The notes beneath the pieces are model-generated. The model saw only the letters and a list, made by a program, of their open reading frames with translations. It ran no database searches and had not been told where the DNA came from. Shown piece after piece: positions 1 through 13,805 of a stretch of 13,805 nucleotides of DNA. The position numbers and the translations under genes were made by a program. Numbering within the stretch: the first letter of the stretch is position 1; each line of letters opens with the position of its first letter. The DNA comes from a virus (Duplodnaviria; Heunggongvirae; Uroviricota; Caudoviricetes): IMG/VR virus record IMGVR_UViG_2703718840_000009, positions 1-13,805 of that record. One strand, 5' to 3'.

Positions 1-585
1 CTATTCGATAATGGGTCCTGTTGGCCATTCAATATCCGGTGCAGTTGATGTATCAACACGGTTCAGCAACACCCGATACTTCTTCCAGGCTTCCAGCAAC
101 GAGTTTTCTTCCTCCGTTGCGATCTCCAGATCCACAGCATCCTGAAGCGGCGCTATATGCTCACTGGCTACCTGCATCAGGCTGTTTTTTGTTTCTTCCG
201 CCTCCCGGATCCGGAACAGTTTTTCTGCTTCCGTATCCTTCACCCAGGCTGTGCCGTTCCACTTCTGATATTCCCCTCCCGGCGACAACCAGGTAACATT
301 TTCCGGTAACGGACCGAGTTCAGAAATAAATAACGCGTCGCCGGAAGCCACGTCATAAACCGTTTTACCCCGATGGTCTTCAACGAGATGCCACGATGCC
401 TCATCACTGTTGAAAACGGCCACAAAGCCAGCAGGAATATCTGGCGGTGCAATATAGGTACTGTTTGCTGGCAGACCTGTATGAGGCGGAATATATGCAT
501 CACCTTCACCAATAAATTCATTAGTTCCGGCCAGCAGATTATAAATTTTTATGGTCCGTGGTTGTTCACTCATTCTGAATGCCAT
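1..585 (-). CDS. tfa: Tail fibre assembly protein Tfa
   Basis: 194-aa ORF ([24 protein letters not shown]...) matches lambda Tfa from memory. Stop codon is at 1-3; start overlaps the stf stop (ATGA). Confidence 0.9.
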
Positions 586-1481
586 TATGCAAGCCTCACA
601 ATATAGTTAAATGCGATGTTTTTGACGGTGTTTTCCGCGTTACCAGCAGCGTTAACGGTGATGGTGTGTCCATGTGAACCAATCGCAACCGAGTGCGTAT
701 GCGCACCAATACCGACAGTATGTGCGTGTGCACCTGCGCTTGCAGCAGTACCCGATACAGAGTGCGTATGAGCGCCTGCAGAAGAAGTGTTAACACTGTA
801 TTTAGAATAATCAGGTGATCCACTTCCCGGAGCACCACTGGAACCACCTGAAACAAATGTCATCGAATGGGTATGTGCACCGGCTGAAGCAGCCGTACCG
901 CTAACACTATGGGTATGCGCACCAGTGTTATTCGTGGATTTAGTGCCGTAATCAAACGACGATGTGGTTTTCGTCCCCAAATCCGTACTGGATACGCTGG
1001 CGCTGTGGGTGTGTGATTTAATGCCGTCCTGTTCCTGAGACAATACGGCTCGATCACTGGCGGGCTTGCCCTTAATCGTCCAGCCACGCATATCAGGGAT
1101 CACGCCTGACGGATAAGCGGCTGCAAGTTTCGGGTAAGCAGATTTGTCAAAAGTCTGCCCCTGCATCAGGGCATAACCAGACGGAACGGTATCTGATGGC
1201 CACGGGATTGGTGCACCGACTGGATAAAACTCTGCAGGAGGATGAGCCGAGGTGTAAAGCTGCGCCCACGGCGACCAGTTTGCGTCGGTCGTATCCCGTC
1301 GTGAACGAATAAATGCCGGAGCATGAGCACCGCTTGTACCACTCCAGCCGATGAGTAACTCACCTTCGCCAACGGCTGTCATCCCTTTCAGGTGAATGAT
1401 ATTTCCATACGCTGTTGGATATCCGTTGTTATACACCTCGTATAACTCAAGACCTGTTGCCCCCTGCGTATTGTCTGTCAA
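585..1481 (-). pseudogene. stf: Side tail fibre protein Stf, C-terminal fragment (~298 codons) truncated at a deletion junction
   Basis: His-rich GAHTHS repeats typical of the lambda Stf C-terminus. The frame stays open upstream into terminase A sequence with no native start; the ORF track start is a TTG. Confidence 0.8.
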
Positions 1482-2760: not shown

Positions 2761-2924
2761 ACATCCCGCGTTCTTCCCTCCGAACAGGACGATATTGTAA
2801 ATTCACTTAATTACGAGGGCATTGCAGTAATTGAGTTGCAGTTTTACCACTTTCCTGACAGTGACAGACTGCGTGTTGGCTCTGTCACAGACTAAATAGT
2901 TTGAATGATTAGCAGTTATGGTGA

Positions 2925-4441: not shown

Positions 4442-4903
4442 CTATCTGCACTGCTCATTAATATACTTCTGGGTTCCTTCCAGTTGTTTTTGCATAGTGA
4501 TCAGCCTCTCTCTGAGGGTGAAATAATCCCGTTCAGCGGTGTCTGCCAGTCGGGGGGAGGCTGCATTATCCACGCCGGAGGCGGTGGTGGCTTCACGCAC
4601 TGACTGACAGACTGCTTTGATGTGCAACCGACGACGACCAGCGGCAACATCATCACGCAGAGCATCATTTTCAGCTTTAGCATCAGCTAACTCCTTCGTG
4701 TATTTTGCATCGAGCGCAGCAACATCACGCTGACGCATCTGCATGTCAGTAATTGCCGCGTTCGCCAGCTTCAGTTCTCTGGCATTTTTGTCGCGCTGGG
4801 CTTTGTAGGTAATGGCGTTATCACGGTAATGATTAACAGCCCATGACAGGCAGACGATGATGCAGATAACCAGAGCGGAGATAATCGCGGTGACTCTGCT
4901 CAT
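4442..4903 (-). CDS. Rz: Spanin inner-membrane subunit Rz
   Basis: 153-aa ORF with N-terminal TM segment and coiled-coil body; matches lambda Rz from memory. Confidence 0.9.
4501..4683 (-). CDS. Rz1: Spanin outer-membrane lipoprotein Rz1, nested in the +1 frame of Rz
   Basis: 60-aa ORF inside Rz with lipobox (VVVGCTS) and a proline-rich stretch ([15 protein letters not shown]). Confidence 0.85.
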
Positions 4904-5376
4904 ACATCAATCTCTCTGACCGTTCCGCCCGCTTCTTTGAATTTTGCAATCAGGCTGTCAGCCTTATGCTCGAACTGACCATAACCAGCGCCCGGCAGTG
5001 AAGCCCAGATATTGCTGCAACGGTCGATTGCCTGACGGATATCACCACGATCAATCATAGGTAAAGCGCCACGCTCCTTAATCTGCTGCAATGCCACAGC
5101 GTCCTGACTTTTCGGAGAGAAGTCTTTCAGGCCAAGCTGCTTGCGGTAGGCATCCCACCAACGGGAAAGAAGCTGGTAGCGTCCGGCGCCTGTTGATTTG
5201 AGTTTTGGGTTTAGCGTGACAAGTTTGCGAGGGTGATCGGAGTAATCAGTGAATAGCTCTCCGCCTACAATGACGTCATAACCATGATTTCTGGTTTTCT
5301 GACGTCCGTTATCAGTTCCCTCCGACCACGCCAGCATATCGAGGAACGCCTTACGTTGATTATTGATTTCTACCAT
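4900..5376 (-). CDS. R: Endolysin R (lytic transglycosylase)
   Basis: 158-aa ORF ([35 protein letters not shown]...) matches lambda R from memory; overlaps the Rz start. Confidence 0.95.
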
Positions 5377-5683
5377 CTTCTACTCCGGCTTTTTTAGCAG
5401 CGAAGCGTTTGATAAGCGAACCAATCGAGTCAGTACCGATGTAGCCGATAAACACGCTCGTTATATAAGCGAGATTGCTACTTAGTCCGGCGAAGTCGAG
5501 AAGGTCACGAATGAACCAGGCGATAATGGCGCACATCGTTGCGTCGATTACTGTTTTTGTAAACGCACCGCCATTATATCTGCCGCGAAGGTACGCCATT
5601 GCAAACGCAAGGATTGCCCCGATGCCTTGTTCCTTTGCCGCGAGAATGGCGGCCAACAGGTCATGTTTTTCTGGCATCTTCAT
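5360..5683 (-). CDS. S: Holin/antiholin S (S107/S105 dual start)
   Basis: 107-aa ORF beginning [32 protein letters not shown] with the Met1-Lys2-Met3 dual-start motif and three TM segments. Confidence 0.95.
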
Positions 5684-6088
5684 GTCTTACCCCCAATAAG
5701 GGGATTTGCTCTATTTAATTAGGAATAAGGTCGATTACTGATAGAACAAATCCAGGCTACTGTGTTTAGTAATCAGATTTGTTCGTGACCGATATGCACG
5801 GGCAAAACGGCAGGAGGTTGTTAGCGCGACCTCCTGCCACCCGCTTTCACGAAGGTCATGTGTAAAAGGCCGCAGCGTAACTATTACTAATGAATTCAGG
5901 ACAGACAGTGGCTACGGCTCAGTTTGGGTTGTGCTGTTGCTGGGCGGCGATGACGCCTGTACGCATTTGGTGATCCGGTTCTGCTTCCGGTATTCGCTTA
6001 ATTCAGCACAACGGAAAGAGCACTGGCTAACCAGGCTCGCCGACTCTTCACGATTATCGACTCAATGCTCTTACCTGTTGTGCAGATA

Positions 6089-6145
6089 TAAAAAATCCCG
6101 AAACCGTTATGCAGGCTCTAACTATTACCTGCGAACTGTTTCGGG
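6089..6145 (-). terminator. tR' intrinsic terminator of the 6S transcript
   Basis: On the minus strand, cccgaaac ... gtttcggg stem followed by a U-run (reverse complement of plus-strand 6089-6145). Confidence 0.7.
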
Positions 6146-6282
6146 ATTGCATTTTGCAGACCTCTCTGCCTGCGATGGTTGGAGTTCCAGACGATACGTC
6201 GAAGTGACCAACTAGGCGGAATCGGTAGTAAGCGCCGCCTCTTTTCATCTCACTACCACAACGAGCGAATTAACCCATCGTT
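6089..6282 (-). ncRNA. Lambda 6S RNA (short pR' transcript terminated at tR')
   Basis: Interval between the inferred pR' start and tR'; the sequence matches the lambda pR'-tR' region from memory. The TSS position is approximate. Confidence 0.55.
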
Positions 6283-6320
6283 GAGTCAAATTTACCCAAT
6301 TTTATTCAATAAGTCAATAT
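6283..6320 (-). promoter_or_regulatory. Late promoter pR' with overlapping qut site
   Basis: Minus strand reads TTGACT (-35), 17-nt spacer, TAAATT (-10), as in lambda (ttgacttattgaataaaattgggtaaatttgactcaacgatgg). Confidence 0.65.
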
Positions 6321-6359
6321 CATGCCGTTAATATGTTACCATCCGTGGCAATCATGCTG

Positions 6360-6752
6360 CTAACGTGTGACCGCATTCAAAATGTTGTCTGCGATTGACT
6401 CTTCTTTGTGGCATTGCACCACCAGAGCGTCATACAGCGGCTTAACAGTGCGTGACCAGGTGGGTTGGGTAAGGTTTGGGATTAGCATCGTCACAGCGCG
6501 ATATGCTGCGCTTGCTGGCATCCTTGAATAGCCGACGCCTTTGCATCTTCCGCACTCTTTCTCGACAACTCTCCCCCACAGCTCTGTTTTGGCAATATCA
6601 ACCGCACGGCCTGTACCATGGCAATCTCTGCATCTTGCCCCCGGCGTCGCGGCACTACGGCAATAATCCGCATAAGCGAATGTTGCGAGCACTTGCAGTA
6701 CCTTTGCCTTAGTATTTCCTTCAAGCTTTGCCACACCACGGTATTTCCCCGA
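6360..6752 (-). pseudogene. Q: Antiterminator Q, C-terminal fragment only (~130 codons)
   Basis: C-terminus (SGKYRGVAKLEGNTKAKVLQ ... HKEESIADNILNAVTR) matches lambda Q. The ORF-track extension to 7019 is antisense to bet/exo, so the Q N-terminus is absent. Confidence 0.8.
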
Positions 6753-6948
6753 TAACGATGAAACCATGCAGGAGATTAACACTCTGCTGATCGCCCTGGA
6801 TAAAACATGGGATGACGACTTATTGCCGCTCTGTTCCCAGATATTTCGCCGCGACATTCGTGCATCGTCAGAACTGACACAGGCCGAAGCAGTGAAAGCT
6901 CTTGGATTCCTGAAACAAAAAGCCACTGAGCAGAAGGTGGCAGCATGA
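6748..6948 (+). pseudogene. bet: Bet single-strand annealing protein, C-terminal ~66-codon remnant
   Basis: Reads (PD)[64 protein letters not shown], the lambda Bet C-terminus; stop overlaps the exo start (ATGA). Confidence 0.8.
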
Positions 6949-7625
6949 CACCGGACATTATCCTGCAGCGTACCGGGATCGACGTGAGAGCTGTCGAACA
7001 GGGGGATGATGCATGGCACAAATTACGGCTCGGCGTCATCACCGCTTCAGAAGTTCACAACGTGATAGCAAAGCCCCGCTCAGGAAAGAAGTGGCCTGAC
7101 ATGAAAATGTCCTACTTCCACACCCTGCTTGCCGAGGTTTGCACCGGTGTGGCTCCGGAAGTTAACGCTAAAGCACTGGCCTGGGGAAAACAGTACGAGA
7201 ACGACGCCAGAACCCTGTTTGAGTTCACTTCCGGCGTGAATGTTATTGAATCCCCGATCATCTATCGCGACGAAAGTATGCGTACCGCCTGCTCTCCCGA
7301 TGGTTTATGCAGTGACGGCAATGGCCTTGAGCTGAAATGCCCGTTTACCTCCCGGGATTTCATGAAGTTCCGGCTCGGTGGTTTCGAGGCCATAAAATCG
7401 GCTTACATGGCCCAGGTGCAGTACAGCATGTGGGTGACACGAAAAGATGCCTGGTACTTTGCCAACTATGACCCACGTATGAAGCGTGAAGGACTGCATT
7501 ATGTCGTGGTTGAGCGGGATGAAAAGTACATGGCGAGTTTTGACGAGATGGTGCCGGAGTTCATCGAAAAAATGGACGAGGCACTGGCTGAAATTGGTTT
7601 TGTATTTGGGGAGCAATGGCGATGA
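6945..7625 (+). CDS. exo: Lambda exonuclease (Red alpha)
   Basis: 226-aa ORF ([40 protein letters not shown]...) matches lambda Exo from memory. Confidence 0.95.
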
Positions 7626-7804
7626 AGCATCCTCACGATAATATCCGGGTAGGTGCGATCACTTTCGTCTACTCCGTTACAAAGCGAGGCTGGGTATTTC
7701 CCGGCCTTTCTGTTATCAGAAATCCCCTGAAAGCACAGCGGCTGGCTGAGGAGATAAATAATAAACGGGGAGCTGTATGCACAAAGCATCTCCCGTTGAG
7801 TTAA
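7616..7804 (+). CDS. Small hypothetical protein (lambda orf60a-like); start may be the ATG at 7622
   Basis: Small ORF immediately after exo, overlapping its stop, as in the lambda pL operon. Confidence 0.6.
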
Positions 7805-7968
7805 GAACGAGTATCGAGATGGCACATAGCCTCGCTCAAATTGGAGTCAGGTTTGTGCCAATACCAGTAGAAACAGACGAAGAATTTCATACGTTAGCCG
7901 CATCCCTTTCACAAAAGCTGGAAATGATGGTGGCGAAAGCAGAAGCAGATGAGAGAGACCAGGTATGA
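7777..7968 (+). CDS. Small hypothetical protein (lambda orf63-like)
   Basis: 63-aa ORF overlapping the neighbouring ORFs, in the same order as lambda. Confidence 0.6.
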   Translation: MHKASPVELRTSIEMAHSLAQIGVRFVPIPVETDEEFHTLAASLSQKLEMMVAKAEADERDQV

Positions 7969-8044
7969 CAACCACTGAATGTATTTTTCTGGCAGCGGGC
8001 TTCATATTCTGTGTGCTTATGCTTGCCGACATGGGGCTTGTTCA

Positions 8045-8260
8045 ATGACACCTCAGCAAGAAAACGCCCTTCGCAGCATTGCCCGTCAGGCTAATTCTGA
8101 AATCAAAAAAGCCAGACAGCAGTTTCCGGATAAAAACGTCGATGACATTTGCCGTAGCGTACTGAAGAAGCACCGCGAAACGGTAACGCTGATGGGATTC
8201 ACACCGACTCATTTAAGCCTGGCAATCGGCATGTTAAACGGCGTCTTTAAGGAACGATGA
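8045..8260 (+). CDS. Small hypothetical protein (lambda orf61-region); ORF track extends it upstream to 7979
   Basis: Internal ATG at 8045 gives MTPQQENALRSIARQANSEIKKARQQFPDKNVDD...; no recognisable domain. Confidence 0.45.
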   Translation: MTPQQENALRSIARQANSEIKKARQQFPDKNVDDICRSVLKKHRETVTLMGFTPTHLSLAIGMLNGVFKER

Positions 8261-8358
8261 ACATGAAAAGCAAAATTATCAGGGAGCTACAGGCTCCTTT
8301 TTTATTGCTCGCATTTACCCCCAAGCGTATTAACCAACAATTCAGGGATTAATGGAAG

Positions 8359-8580
8359 ATGGCAGACATCATTGATTCAGCATCAGAAATTGAAGAATTA
8401 CAGCGCAACACAGCAATAAAAATGCGCCGCCTGAACCACCAGGCTGTATCTGCCACTCATTGTTGTGAGTGTGGCGATCCCATAGATGAGCTAAGACGCC
8501 TGGCCGTTCAGGGTTGTCGGACTTGTGCAAGTTGCCAGGAAGATCTGGAGCTTATCAGTAAACAGAGAGGTTCGAAGTGA
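8359..8580 (+). CDS. TraR/DksA-family C4 zinc-finger protein (lambda Orf73-like)
   Basis: 73-aa ORF with CxxC-(17)-CxxC (HCCECGDPIDELRRLAVQGCRTCASC), resembling F-plasmid TraR. Stop overlaps the next ORF start (GTGA). Confidence 0.8.
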   Translation: MADIIDSASEIEELQRNTAIKMRRLNHQAVSATHCCECGDPIDELRRLAVQGCRTCASCQEDLELISKQRGSK

Positions 8581-8990
8581 GCGTAATTCACTCTCAGGCA
8601 CTGCGTGAAGCGGCAGAGCAGGCAATGCCTGACAACTGGGGATTTGACGCGGACCTTTTCCATGAGCTGGTAACACCATCGATTGTGCTGACACTGCTGG
8701 ATGAACGGGAAAGAAACCAGCAATACATCAAACGCCGCGACCAGGAGAACGAGGATATTGCGCTAACGGTGGGGAAACTGCGTGTTGAGCTGGAGACAGC
8801 AAAAATCAAAACTCAACGAGCAGCGTGAGTAGAAGGTGTTATCTCGGATGGAAGTAAGCGTATTGCTGAACTGGAGGCCTGGGTTGAATACACAAGAGCT
8901 GCATACGTAAGAGCAAAAGACAAGGGAGATTTGATCAGAGTTATTACCCGCCAACCAACGGGATTTTACGCTTACGTACCATGTAATTAG
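8577..8990 (+). pseudogene. ea22: ea22-like ORF interrupted by an in-frame TGA at 8826-8828 (83 codons, stop, then 53 open codons)
   Basis: N-terminus MSVIHSQALREAAEQAMPDNWGFDADLFHELVTPSIVL resembles lambda Ea22 (from memory, uncertain). After the TGA the same frame reads VEGVISDGSKRIAELEAWVEYTRAAYVRAKDKGDLIRVITRQPTGFYAYVPCN to TAG at 8988-8990. Confidence 0.5.
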
Positions 8991-9126
8991 GAATCCTTGA
9001 AGTGGCAGCCTAACTGCGGATACACTGAAATGGCGATTTGGTAACATGTTTCGCACAAGGCTGTTACTACACTTAGAGATAATCAGCCATGATTAAACGC
9101 TTTGTAAAAAGTAAAAGGAAATTACA

Positions 9127-9741
9127 ATGAAAAAATCAATACTAATTTTAGGGCTTACGTTAATTGTCTCATCTCAAATACCATCGGCAATGGCAAAAAA
9201 TGAATCAAAACTATGGGTTGTTGTTGATCGAACGGAAAGACATACCTGCCCTTCAAGTAAATGTGGAGTGGCTGGGAAACTATTTTTCAGGGAAGGCGTA
9301 GATTTTCTAGAAAAAAAAGGTGAATGGGTTCGTATAACTGAGCCATATTCAGCCTCATGTGTTGGAGGGGAAAGCGAATATATTAAAGAAGGTAATAAAT
9401 CCTGCACAAGAAAAAATGGAATCGTTAATGGCAAGTTTTCAGAATGGGTTAAACTTAGTGATCTTAGCAGTGAAAGGCCATCAGATCCTGCTGAAAATGC
9501 GAGCGGAGATGATACTTTAATCAAAGGATCTGATGACTACCGTATATACAAAAAAGAGTTTTCTTCGGCAGCTAGGAAGTTAATAAATGAAGGGGTCTGC
9601 ACGGAAAGCGATTTTAAGGAAATCGGAGGGTGGATGGCATCAAGCAATAAGGGTGAAAACATCTATTTCACATATTGCGGAGGAATGACGTTGTCGAACA
9701 GAATATATCTAGACGTTAAAAGTGGAAAGACTTTTAGATAA
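9127..9741 (+). CDS. Hypothetical secreted protein with a possible bacterial SH3-like N-terminal domain (non-lambda)
   Basis: 204-aa ORF with RBS aagga ~8 nt upstream and a signal peptide (MKKSILILGLTLIVSSQIPSAMA). Visibly AT-rich, several Cys, followed by a terminator hairpin. Confidence 0.8.
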   Translation: MKKSILILGLTLIVSSQIPSAMAKNESKLWVVVDRTERHTCPSSKCGVAGKLFFREGVDFLEKKGEWVRITEPYSASCVGGESEYIKEGNKSCTRKNGIVNGKFSEWVKLSDLSSERPSDPAENASGDDTLIKGSDDYRIYKKEFSSAARKLINEGVCTESDFKEIGGWMASSNKGENIYFTYCGGMTLSNRIYLDVKSGKTFR

Positions 9742-9812
9742 TATGATATTACCAATGACAGCATTAATTTAATGCCTCCATAGAATTATCTCCAGGAAGT
9801 AAGTATAAGAAA

Positions 9813-9850
9813 AGCCCGCACAATGAGCTGCTGCGGGCTTTGTGTTATTC
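9813..9850 (+). terminator. Putative intrinsic terminator after the secreted-protein gene
   Basis: Stem agcccgca / tgcgggct with ~11-nt loop, followed by a T-rich tract (ttgtgttatt). Confidence 0.55.
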
Positions 9851-10034
9851 GCCATATTTTATGAAGCAAATACGACACTATAGATAATTAAGCGTTACTG
9901 GTTGTCGATTCCTCACTCATTCCTGCTGATGGCTGTCTTCTTGTATGTGCCATTGAAGGGTAATATCGCGTAAAAAGATACCGGAAGTATCCGCGCCGCC
10001 ATGATTGTCTTTCTCCTGATGCAGGAAAAGCAGA

Positions 10035-10373
10035 ATGACTAGATCAGCAGCAGAGCGCAAAGCCGATCAGAGAGCCAAGCAAGCATCATCCGGTATGCGT
10101 AAGCTGGAGCTTGTACTTGATGCTCAGGAAATTGAAATGCTGGAGCGTAACTGAGCCACGCGCCGCTTCAGGCGTGCGCCTTACGAGTTTGGTGAGTACA
10201 TAGCATTACTGAGCCGCCAGGATGATGCACGTGTGCGCTGGCGTATAAAATCGATTAGCAGAAAACGTTGCCGTAAGTGCGGCGAGAGAGTTCCTGTTAA
10301 TTCATGCCCGTGTAATGGTGACTCACAATACTGGGTGACCAAAGGCTGGCACGAAACAAAATTAATGATATAA
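10035..10373 (+). pseudogene. Zinc-ribbon small ORF (possible Ea8.5 counterpart) split by an in-frame TGA at 10152-10154
   Basis: ATG at 10035 with RBS aggaaaag gives 39 aa (MTRSAAERKADQRAKQASSGMRKLELVLDAQEIEMLERN). After the TGA the same frame stays open to TAA at 10371-10373 and contains CRKCGERVPVNSCPC; a GTG at 10233 could restart it. Confidence 0.4.
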
Positions 10374-10401
10374 ATCTCTGTGACATGTCACGGAGGCGGC
10401 A

Positions 10402-10830
10402 ATGAAATTAGACCAGCAATATCTAAAAGATCTACTTATCGCATTCGAAAAAACTTATGGCCCTGACACGATGCTTAGTGAACTAGAGGATAATGGCTTT
10501 AATAGATATGACCAAAATTTTATTTTCCATATGCGATTATTATGTGACTACGAATTAATAGTTAGGGTTGATGGAAAACCAGGGTTCGGTCATATAATGT
10601 CCAACGAGTTAGGGGAAGGTGTTGAATATAGTTGGATCGAAGTACCACTGAGGTTGACAGCAAGAGGGCATGATTTTATTGCTGACTTACGTCAAAAGGA
10701 GGTCTGGCAAGCTATAAAAACAAACTTTAAGGATGAGGGAATTAGTACTCTTATGAGTGTTTCAAAATCACTAGCAAAAGTCTTTGCAAGGAAAAAAATA
10801 AAAGATATTACAGGAATAGATATTGAATAA
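10402..10830 (+). CDS. Hypothetical 142-aa protein, no signal peptide (non-lambda)
   Basis: Strong RBS ggagg 5 nt upstream; visibly AT-rich; preceded by a 12-bp palindrome and followed by a terminator hairpin at about 10877-10900. Confidence 0.75.
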   Translation: MKLDQQYLKDLLIAFEKTYGPDTMLSELEDNGFNRYDQNFIFHMRLLCDYELIVRVDGKPGFGHIMSNELGEGVEYSWIEVPLRLTARGHDFIADLRQKEVWQAIKTNFKDEGISTLMSVSKSLAKVFARKKIKDITGIDIE

Positions 10831-10876
10831 TTCTTAGCATCAAGCAACTACTGCCTTTGGTGAAAATTATATCTGA

Positions 10877-10900
10877 ACTCGCTACGGCGAGTTTTGTTTT
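10877..10900 (+). terminator. Putative intrinsic terminator after the 142-aa gene
   Basis: 6-bp stem actcgc / gcgagt with loop tacg, followed by tttgtttt. Confidence 0.55.
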
Positions 10901-10913
10901 ACGGAGATGATAA

Positions 10914-11081
10914 ATGCACTTCAGAGTCACTGGTGAATGGAATGGAGAACCATTCAACAGAGTTATCTAAGCAGAGAACATCAATGACTGCTATGACAAC
11001 TGGATGATATGGGCGCAGATAGCACATGCAGACATAACCAATATTCGAATTGAAGAACTGAAAGAACACCAAGCCGCCTGA
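10914..11081 (+). pseudogene. Small ORF upstream of xis (lambda orf55-position) interrupted by an in-frame TAA at 10968-10970
   Basis: Reads MHFRVTGEWNGEPFNRVI, TAA, then AENINDCYDNWMIWAQIAHADITNIRIEELKEHQAA to TGA at 11079-11081. The 168-nt span fits the 55-codon lambda ORF I recall at this position. Confidence 0.4.
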
Positions 11082-11120
11082 TGGCGGTTTTTTCTTGCGT
11101 GTAATTGCGGAGACTTTGCG

Positions 11121-11339
11121 ATGTACTTGACACTTCAGGAGTGGAACGCTCGCCAGCGACGCCCAAGAAGCCTTGAAACAGTTCGTCGATGGGTGCGCGA
11201 ATGCAGGATATTCCCTCCTCCGGTTAAGGATGGAAGAGAGTATCTGTTCCACGAATCAGCGGTAAAGGTTGACTTAAATCGACCAGTAACAGGTAGCCTT
11301 TTGAAGAGGATCAGAAATGGGAAGAAGGCGAAGTCATGA
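11121..11339 (+). CDS. xis: Excisionase Xis
   Basis: 72-aa ORF (MYLTLQEWNARQRRPRSLETVRRWVRECRIFPPPVKDGREYLFHESAVKVDLN...) matches lambda Xis; 3' end overlaps int. Confidence 0.95.
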   Translation: MYLTLQEWNARQRRPRSLETVRRWVRECRIFPPPVKDGREYLFHESAVKVDLNRPVTGSLLKRIRNGKKAKS

Positions 11340-12387
11340 GCGCCGGGATTTACCCCCTAACCTTTATATAAGAAACAATGGATATTACTGCTACAGGGAC
11401 CCAAGGACGGGTAAAGAGTTTGGATTAGGCAGAGACAGGCGAATCGCAATCACTGAAGCTATACAGGCCAACATTGAGTTATTTTCAGGACACAAACACA
11501 AGCCTCTGACAGCGAGAATCAACAGTGATAATTCCGTTACGTTACATTCATGGCTTGATCGCTACGAAAAAATCCTGGCCAGCAGAGGAATCAAGCAGAA
11601 GACACTCATAAATTACATGAGCAAAATTAAAGCAATAAGGAGGGGTCTGCCTGATGCTCCACTTGAAGACATCACCACAAAAGAAATTGCGGCAATGCTC
11701 AATGGATACATAGACGAGGGCAAGGCGGCGTCAGCCAAGTTAATCAGATCAACACTGAGCGATGCATTCCGAGAGGCAATAGCTGAAGGCCATATAACAA
11801 CAAACCCTGTCGCTGCCACTCGCGCAGCAAAATCAGAGGTAAGGAGATCAAGACTTACGGCTGACGAATACCTGAAAATTTATCAAGCAGCAGAATCATC
11901 ACCATGTTGGCTCAGACTTGCAATGGAACTGGCTGTTGTTACCGGGCAACGAGTTGGTGATTTATGCGAAATGAAGTGGTCTGATATCGTAGATGGATAT
12001 CTTTATGTCGAGCAAAGCAAAACAGGCGTAAAAATTGCCATCCCAACAGCATTGCATGTTGATGCTCTCGGAATATCAATGAAGGAAACACTTGATAAAT
12101 GCAAAGAGATTCTTGGCGGAGAAACCATAATTGCATCTACTCGTCGCGAACCGCTTTCATCCGGCACAGTATCAAGGTATTTTATGCGCGCACGAAAAGC
12201 ATCAGGTCTTTCCTTCGAAGGGGATCCGCCTACCTTTCACGAGTTGCGCAGTTTGTCTGCAAGACTCTATGAGAAGCAGATAAGCGATAAGTTTGCTCAA
12301 CATCTTCTCGGGCATAAGTCGGACACCATGGCATCACAGTATCGTGATGACAGAGGCAGGGAGTGGGACAAAATTGAAATCAAATAA
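11317..12387 (+). CDS. int: Integrase Int (tyrosine recombinase)
   Basis: 356-aa ORF (MGRRRSHERRDLPPNLYIRNNGYYCYRDPRTGKEFGLGRDRRIAITEAIQ...) matches lambda Int over its full length. Confidence 0.97.
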   Translation: MGRRRSHERRDLPPNLYIRNNGYYCYRDPRTGKEFGLGRDRRIAITEAIQANIELFSGHKHKPLTARINSDNSVTLHSWLDRYEKILASRGIKQKTLINYMSKIKAIRRGLPDAPLEDITTKEIAAMLNGYIDEGKAASAKLIRSTLSDAFREAIAEGHITTNPVAATRAAKSEVRRSRLTADEYLKIYQAAESSPCWLRLAMELAVVTGQRVGDLCEMKWSDIVDGYLYVEQSKTGVKIAIPTALHVDALGISMKETLDKCKEILGGETIIASTRREPLSSGTVSRYFMRARKASGLSFEGDPPTFHELRSLSARLYEKQISDKFAQHLLGHKSDTMASQYRDDRGREWDKIEIK

Positions 12388-12483
12388 TGATTTTATTTTG
12401 ACTGATAGTGACCTGTTCGTTGCAACAAATTGATAAGCAATGCTTTTTTATAATGCCAACTTAGTATAAAAAAGCAGGCTTCA
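12388..12483. other. attL: attL junction: phage P' arm with Int arm-type sites, 15-bp core (about 12461-12475), then bacterial arm
   Basis: Reverse complement reads tgaagcct-GCTTTTTTATACTAA-gttggcattataaaaaagcattgcttatcaatttgttgcaacgaacaggtcactatcagtcaaaataaaatca: bacterial-side sequence, lambda core, then lambda P' arm. Confidence 0.88.
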
Positions 12484-12521
12484 ACGGATTCATTTTTCTA
12501 TTTCATAGCCCGGAGCAACCT

Positions 12522-13805
12522 GTGAACACATTTTCAGTTTCCCGTCTGGCGCTGGCATTGGCTTTTGGCGTGACGCTGACCGCCTGTAGCTCAACCCCGC
12601 CCGATCAACGTCCTTCTGATCAAACCGCGCCTGGTACCTCTTCTCGCCCGATTCTGTCGGCAAAAGAAGCGCAGAATTTCGATGCTCAACACTATTTTGC
12701 ATCCCTGACACCAGGTGCTGCAGCGTGGAATCCTTCCCCGATTACCCTGCCTGCGCAACCTGACTTTGTTGTCGGCCCGGCGGGCACTCAAGGTGTAACG
12801 CATACCACGATTCAGGCGGCGGTAGATGCGGCAATTATCAAGCGTACCAACAAGCGCCAGTATATTGCCGTGATGCCTGGTGAGTATCAGGGAACGGTAT
12901 ATGTCCCTGCCGCTCCGGGTGGAATTACTCTGTACGGTACAGGTGAAAAACCGATTGATGTGAAGATTGGGCTTTCCCTTGATGGTGGCATGAGCCCTGC
13001 CGACTGGCGTCACGACGTCAACCCGCGCGGCAAATATATGCCAGGTAAACCAGCGTGGTATATGTACGATAGCTGCCAGAGCAAACGCAGCGACAGTATC
13101 GGTGTTCTCTGCTCTGCGGTCTTCTGGTCACAAAACAATGGCCTGCAACTGCAAAATCTGACCATCGAAAACACGCTGGGCGATAGCGTAGATGCAGGTA
13201 ACCATCCGGCGGTGGCACTGCGTACTGATGGTGACCAGGTACAGATTAACAACGTTAACATTCTCGGTCGTCAGAACACCTTCTTTGTCACCAACAGCGG
13301 TGTGCAGAACCGTCTGGAAACGAATCGTCAGCCGCGTACGCTGGTGACCAACAGCTACATTGAAGGGGATGTGGATATCGTTTCTGGTCGCGGCGCAGTG
13401 GTGTTCGATAACACCGAATTCCGCGTGGTGAACTCACGTACTCAGCAAGAAGCGTATGTGTTTGCACCGGCTACGCTGTCCAACATTTACTACGGTTTCC
13501 TCGCCGTAAACAGCCGTTTCAATGCTTTCGGTGATGGTGTGGCGCAACTGGGCCGCTCGCTGGATGTTGATGCCAATACCAACGGTCAGGTGGTGATCCG
13601 TGATAGCGCCATCAACGAAGGTTTTAACACGGCTAAACCGTGGGCCGATGCGGTGATCTCTAATCGTCCGTTTGCGGGTAATACCGGCAGCGTAGATGAT
13701 AACGACGAAATACAGCGCAATCTGAATGACACTAACTACAACCGCATGTGGGAATACAATAACCGCGGCGTGGGTAGTAAAGTGGTTGCAGAGGCGAAGA
13801 AGTAA
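12522..13805 (+). CDS. ybhC: Host outer-membrane lipoprotein YbhC (pectinesterase-family / acyl-CoA thioesterase)
   Basis: 427-aa ORF with GTG start, signal peptide and lipobox (LTAC); recognised as E. coli YbhC, the gene beside the lambda attachment site. Visibly higher GC than the prophage accessory regions. Confidence 0.88.
   Translation: MNTFSVSRLALALAFGVTLTACSSTPPDQRPSDQTAPGTSSRPILSAKEAQNFDAQHYFASLTPGAAAWNPSPITLPAQPDFVVGPAGTQGVTHTTIQAAVDAAIIKRTNKRQYIAVMPGEYQGTVYVPAAPGGITLYGTGEKPIDVKIGLSLDGGMSPADWRHDVNPRGKYMPGKPAWYMYDSCQSKRSDSIGVLCSAVFWSQNNGLQLQNLTIENTLGDSVDAGNHPAVALRTDGDQVQINNVNILGRQNTFFVTNSGVQNRLETNRQPRTLVTNSYIEGDVDIVSGRGAVVFDNTEFRVVNSRTQQEAYVFAPATLSNIYYGFLAVNSRFNAFGDGVAQLGRSLDVDANTNGQVVIRDSAINEGFNTAKPWADAVISNRPFAGNTGSVDDNDEIQRNLNDTNYNRMWEYNNRGVGSKVVAEAKK

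Follow-up and report, generated by a model that had tools for sequence, protein, structure and literature searches.

A single-base nonsense change interrupts the lambda orf55 homologue of a decaying prophage remnant at att-lambda

The lambda orf55 homologue in the analyzed DNA, a stretch of 13,805 nt from IMG/VR record IMGVR_UViG_2703718840_000009 (hereafter the window), has very probably been knocked out by one G-to-T nonsense change within a decaying att-lambda prophage remnant. The copy consists of 55 codons plus stop and is interrupted at codon 19. It opens with ATG at 10914, reaches TAA at 10968-10970 after 18 sense codons, and continues in frame for another 36 codons to TGA at 11079-11081; its translation is MHFRVTGEWNGEPFNRVI, stop, AENINDCYDNWMIWAQIAHADITNIRIEELKEHQAA, stop. 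A transversion of the single base at 10968 turns GAA (Glu19) into TAA (E19*). The features of the region are listed below in the order of their positions.

10875..10901, plus strand: upstream terminator-like hairpin, GAACTCGC-TACG-GCGAGTTT with T-rich tail (stem-loop 10875-10894; terminator scan and fold)
10903..10906, plus strand: Shine-Dalgarno-like GGAG, 7 nt 5' of the orf55 ATG (sequence)
10914..11081, plus strand: orf55 pseudogene, homologue of lambda lambdap35 and 434 ORF55 (alignment, translations and PGAP)
10968..10970, plus strand: premature TAA at codon 19; lambda, 434 and E. coli ATCC 8739 have GAA (Glu19) there
10998..11000, plus strand: AAC (Asn29), where other alleles have CAC (His29) (allele comparison)
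11071..11093, plus strand: intrinsic terminator-like hairpin, AAGCCGCC-TGAT-GGCGGTTT (stem-loop 11071-11090; scan, fold and alignment)
11095..11108, plus strand: TTGC-N6-TTGC, putative CII-binding repeat together with the -35 region of pI, the int promoter (motif search and alignment)
11121..11339, plus strand: xis, intact excisionase gene, 72 aa (Pfam Exc, E = 3.9e-41; RefSeq WP_001303849.1 in identical genomes)
11317..12387, plus strand: int, intact lambda-type tyrosine integrase gene, 356 aa, overlapping xis as in lambda (ORF list and annotations)
12461..12475, minus strand: 15-bp lambda att core GCTTTTTTATACTAA, the prophage/chromosome junction beside ybhC (exact match, 0 expected)
12522-13805: ybhC, chromosomal gene

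The region 10860-11130 of the window matches lambda with 95.1% identity over 265 nt (megablast, E = 6e-115). Homology covers the entire ORF, and the protein equals that of lambda except for E19*, H29N and V41I, with the same residue at 52 of the 54 sense codons. The lambda gene (lambdap35, NP_597778.1) is annotated on the complementary strand as a CDS of 168 nt and shares with the window copy its span, the 39-nt gap to the xis ATG, the Shine-Dalgarno sequence and the place between the upstream hairpin and the pre-pI terminator, whereas the gene upstream is ea8.5 in lambda and a DUF2513 ORF in the window. The same ORF55 cassette is found in phage 434 (AAA67903.1) together with the upstream hairpin, the pI/CII site, xis and int; 434 carries an extra ORF114 between ORF55 and xis, and the window is arranged as in lambda. 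Where the window has GGAG, the 434 record OL657226 shows an annotated ribosome-binding site. The window copy also holds the position of the family as the last ORF of the exo-xis region, directly before the terminator, pI and xis, but its 55-codon frame is broken by the TAA. Judged by its sequence, it is a pseudogene member of the orf55 family rather than a functional one. A search against Rfam returned no RNA family in or beside the feature.

A preliminary description of this DNA had noted 18 codons up to the TAA at 10968-10970, 36 in-frame codons from there to a TGA, and the location of this TGA within a gccgcc/ggcgg hairpin with T-run. All of this is right to the base in the sequence and its translation, and the TGA lies in the loop TGAT. 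The span had further been equated with a 55-codon lambda ORF, and the TAA interpreted as a nonsense mutation. The lambda gene fits exactly, both in its coordinates (CDS 29118-29285) and in its size and distance to xis. The nucleotide alignment proposed there, against lambda around the xis-proximal ORF, places GAA at lambda codon 19, with no shared stop. Since GAA is also present in 434 and ATCC 8739, and the frame is intact in 90 of 92 sampled alleles, the TAA is a derived nonsense mutation, as had been suspected.

Identical copies are already annotated in E. coli genomes. The pseudogene FFJ14_RS06875 of strain NS-NP030 is 100% identical over 271 nt, and AABJ53_RS07665 of strain PSJ-12 belongs to a segment 100% identical across window positions 6753-13805; PGAP calls both copies 'hypothetical protein; internal stop' at exactly the orf55 interval. 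The PSJ-12 remnant differs from the window in keeping N'-cIII-kil-gam-bet and in having an ISKpn26 copy, while the feature itself shows no differences. The pseudogene call is thus already in RefSeq for the identical sequence, and the pre-pI terminator, the CII site with pI, and xis-int are all described elements. Apart from the nonsense change and one missense change, the anatomy of the feature follows lambda.

Four alternatives to a knocked-out gene were weighed, three of which concern the stop and the gene themselves. An error of sequencing or assembly in the source contig, with the gene truly intact, would require only a single-base difference. However, the same 271 nt are present with 100% identity in eight complete RefSeq E. 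coli genomes, isolated in several countries from an environmental surface, food, cattle and humans. Targeted queries further recovered TAA at codon 19 (TAA19) on other haplotypes in three porcine ETEC genomes and one additional genome, and an exact-pattern scan found it in six IMG/VR contigs. At least 12 of 5,426 complete genomes, about 2,180 of which carry the region, therefore possess this stop, which is heritable. Because at least 12 complete genomes, assembled independently, and six IMG/VR contigs share the TAA, a read or assembly error is ruled out, its remaining probability being negligible. That orf55 is no real gene, so that the tL4 to t'I interval is a non-coding spacer and the TAA neutral and without consequence, is very unlikely. 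This reading draws on the lack of a Pfam match for Orf55, on the annotation of the lambda CDS merely as 'predicted by GeneMark', and on the fact that no experimental function of orf55 has been reported. Against it, we gathered alleles from IMG/VR by a pattern from the conserved 3' end, independent of codon 19, and the frame was open in the above 90 of 92 full-length alleles (60 haplotypes). Among the 60 haplotypes, synonymous sites carry about 0.90 segregating changes each and nonsynonymous sites about 0.31, a roughly threefold higher synonymous density, and a properly spaced Shine-Dalgarno-like motif precedes the ATG. A high-confidence alpha/beta model, with three strands and one helix spanning the protein, has been reported for Orf55, the last and uncharacterised gene of the exo-xis region (PMC8614690). 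Taken at the sequence level, orf55 behaves as a real, constrained gene.

The stop would end translation after 18 residues, with most of the predicted three-strand, one-helix fold lost. The proposed contact residues R45 and E47 of the model are both downstream of codon 19 (PMC8614690) and would be absent from the truncated product. Since the stop removes most of the predicted fold, we infer that the allele is a loss-of-function pseudogene, and E19* would be a null allele. The third alternative, that the interrupted ORF still functions through an 18-aa N-terminal peptide, a 25-aa C-terminal peptide re-initiated at ATG 11004, or both, is most improbable. An in-frame ATG (Met31) at 11004 does open a 25-aa ORF, but it is preceded by no Shine-Dalgarno-like sequence (...gacaactggATG), the predicted fold needs three strands and a helix across the whole protein, and the native promoter pL is missing from the remnant. 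T7 Gp2, an RNA polymerase inhibitor, was suggested as a structural analogue of Orf55 at about 2.1 A RMSD and about 20% similarity, which the paper itself calls speculative (PMC8614690). The small alpha/beta fold would be shared with Gp2 by model only, with no Pfam hit in support, and the comparison bears on the truncated allele only by indicating the residues it lacks.

Other disrupted or partial copies of orf55 were also seen. The nonsense alleles E8* and W9* were found in the IMG/VR contigs L017 and L034, respectively, one contig each. About 30 further contigs retain no more of orf55 than its last ~15 codons, joined to unrelated sequence, and these match the 'portion of orf55' reported for 933W-type phages.

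The remnant around orf55 is degraded, as is evident from its gene content. The left part of the window contains a tail-fibre assembly gene, a tail-fibre fragment, a terminase fragment, Nu1/nohD, ylcI, ybcW, ybcV and bor, followed by a DLP12-type Rz/R/S/Q block on the minus strand, which is 100% identical to K-12 over 4700-6754. After the bet remainder (bet') come exo, DUF1317, DUF1382, an unnamed ORF, a TraR-like ORF and a truncated ea22, and then a 204-aa ORF, the ORF 10035-10373, the DUF2513 ORF, the interrupted orf55, xis and int. Homology to lambda stops at 12475, the end of the att core. No pL, N, cI, cro, cII, cIII, O/P or head/tail module is present in the mapped window. With int-xis and the att core by ybhC, several pseudogenes, and the replication, immunity and morphogenesis genes missing, the element is a defective lambdoid prophage at att-lambda, and its relatives have truncated terminase, ea22 and bet genes and internal stops as well as further deletions and IS insertions. 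Because pL, the usual promoter of the early leftward operon with orf55, has been lost together with N, immunity and the cII/cIII genes, native expression of orf55 has probably ceased, and the gene is free to decay like its neighbours; the mutation would presumably be neutral here. Such a decaying element is expected to acquire nonsense mutations in small accessory genes, and this one represents ordinary prophage decay.

Several further marks of rearrangement were observed along the window. The Q/S/R/Rz block (minus strand) meets the last ~65 codons of bet (plus strand) head to head at an abrupt junction at ~6745-6760 (about 6753), and the nin/immunity/N/cIII/kil/gam segment, still in PSJ-12, is missing from the window. 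The ORF 10035-10373 (plus strand) has an in-frame TAG at codon 40, and its counterparts in PSJ-12, NS-NP030 and ATCC 8739 are annotated by PGAP with 'internal stop'. The Ea22-like ORF 8577-8828 (plus strand) is cut to 83 aa (Pfam Ead_Ea22, residues 3-76), and its RefSeq relatives are partial or frameshifted. An Rfam match to IS009 (RF02111) lies at 44-242 on the minus strand within the tail-fibre assembly gene, scoring 219.5 bits against a gathering score of 117. About 680 nt (window 757-1435) of the tail-fibre ORF (585-1481, minus strand) are kept in the window and absent from PSJ-12, and at window 2909-2912 PSJ-12 has an ISKpn26 insertion that is not in the window. The same remnant is eroding differently in sister lineages.

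The sequence downstream of the stop remains well conserved. Between 10999 and the start of xis it matches lambda base for base, apart from a G-to-A change at 11034 (V41I), and the regulatory architecture is for this reason regarded as conserved and known. The hairpin at 11071-11090 combines an 8-bp stem, five of whose pairs are G-C, with a loop of 4 nt, and a T6 tract follows as far as 11093; the hairpin folds with -13.0 kcal/mol (z = -2.75), and the lambda hairpin is the same base for base. The scan detected four terminator-like sites in 1.2 kb where 0.8 were expected. As a G+C-rich stem-loop with T-run just 5' of the pI -35 region and CII site, this hairpin is a candidate t'-I by its sequence and position. 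The integrase promoter and the T'I terminator of lambda and 434 were reportedly described by Benedik, Mascarenhas and Campbell in 1983. In phage 434, record M60848 labels the terminator at the matching position before pI as t'-I, and in record OL657226 an annotated terminator, for which PMID 6305007 is cited, abuts the CII-dependent pI and its TTGC-N6-TTGC site at the equivalent place. The corresponding sequence at 11095-11108, TTGCGTGTAATTGC, is the same as in lambda and fits the pI motif. The hairpin and T-run holding the normal TGA would thus be a conserved intrinsic terminator before the CII-activated pI and xis, unchanged here. No CII activator is encoded in cis, the window having been mapped end to end without an immunity/cII segment.

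The upstream hairpin folds with -11.9 kcal/mol (z = -3.03) and corresponds to a site labelled t-L4 in M60848. The name lambda tL3 was considered for the hairpin that holds the TGA and dropped, because the 434 records M60848 and OL657226, alone among annotated records in labelling these sites, give t-L4 (upstream) and t'-I (before xis); a literature search on tL3 returned cloning-vector mentions only. The upstream hairpin marks the 5' edge of the orf55 cassette, with homology to lambda, 434 and the L011 copy beginning at 10866-10870. Copies of the cassette in the lambda, 434, ETEC and TorI-type contexts share homology over only about 224-227 nt, which begin with the upstream hairpin and end with the T-run of the downstream one (window 10866-11093; L011 1518-1741; 434 1498-1724). 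Since homology ends at both hairpins, the terminators appear as mosaic module boundaries of a small terminator-bracketed cassette. The hairpin after ORF55 in 434 contains a mismatch (-7.4 kcal/mol, z = -0.78), attributed to the ORF114 that follows, and a different hairpin before pI serves as t'-I there. In ETEC4075 (45551-46090), the hairpin after the interrupted orf55 keeps a perfect GCCGCC/GGCGG stem despite ORF114 downstream, unlike its mismatched 434 counterpart. No tRNA is present beside the L011 orf55 copy, despite a TΨC-like string there.

The distribution of the stop extends beyond the remnant in the window. Among the 105 full-length alleles collected, 96 carry GAA and 9 carry TAA at codon 19, and all nine TAA alleles came from the window, targeted searches or matched genomes. 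The TAA is found on four haplotypes: the window type with H29N, L010, an ETEC type with D22/N28 and an L011 type with D22/L32. In the sample only TAA alleles carry H29N, and L010, in which the TAA occurs with His29 retained, is a plausible intermediate to the window type. Three contexts were recognized, with lambda xis, with 434-type ORF114 and xis, and with a TorI-type excisionase; the second is another small, IS-ridden att-lambda remnant and the third a prophage with many intact early genes. As several haplotypes share the TAA and one of the prophages with it is less degraded, E19* is not purely a by-product of the decay of the remnant. The changes N22D, D28N and I32L downstream of the stop were considered as post-inactivation decay and rejected, being common in intact alleles. 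A single clade of TAA alleles is likewise unsupported at the haplotype level.

This scatter speaks for the fourth alternative, in which Orf55 is costly to lysogens and the stop, as a recurrent or positively selected knock-out, has arisen or spread repeatedly. Each TAA haplotype is 2-4 differences away from an intact haplotype but 5-9 from the other TAA groups. In addition, free phages gave no match to the TAA-containing query, a 51-mer, in a collection of 50,697 phage records, within the limits of the 28-nt megablast seed. Nevertheless, we consider this alternative unlikely. The TAA allele is rare in the genomes counted above, and the other orf55 stops (E8* and W9*) are singletons. Shuffling among backgrounds is the norm in orf55: when common polymorphic sites are paired, 172 of the 325 pairs have at least four gametes, a count slightly inflated by multi-allelic sites. 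No special mechanism is needed for the scattered E19*, because this four-gamete test indicates that orf55 is generally reshuffled, either by recombination or by homoplasy. Two of the three TAA contexts are degraded remnants that share the att-lambda site and an identical Xis protein, so one origin followed by recombination fits. Transfer of an old TAA allele by recombination is enough to account for this scatter. Two other searches gave no hit: an exact 23-mer with the TAA is absent from the GTDB species-representative genomes, and a synthetic query with TAA on the lambda haplotype had no exact match in E. coli genomes. That the occurrence of E19* on four haplotypes and three unrelated prophage backbones reflects repeated origin or selective spread of a null allele is quite unlikely; if true, it would mean that Orf55, the proposed Gp2-like RNA-polymerase binder, is costly to the lysogen and preferentially silenced in prophage domestication.

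With the knock-out of orf55 by a single nonsense change as the preferred reading, the result confirms the window as a lambda-type prophage remnant in decay, and otherwise matters little. It is of value for annotation, as the interval is to be named a lambda orf55 pseudogene and the hairpin a pre-pI terminator (t'-I in the 434 record). Tests of whether Orf55 modulates RNA polymerase, a speculative role, could take the E19* allele as a natural null. For the remnant itself, orf55 can go without effect on its maintenance.
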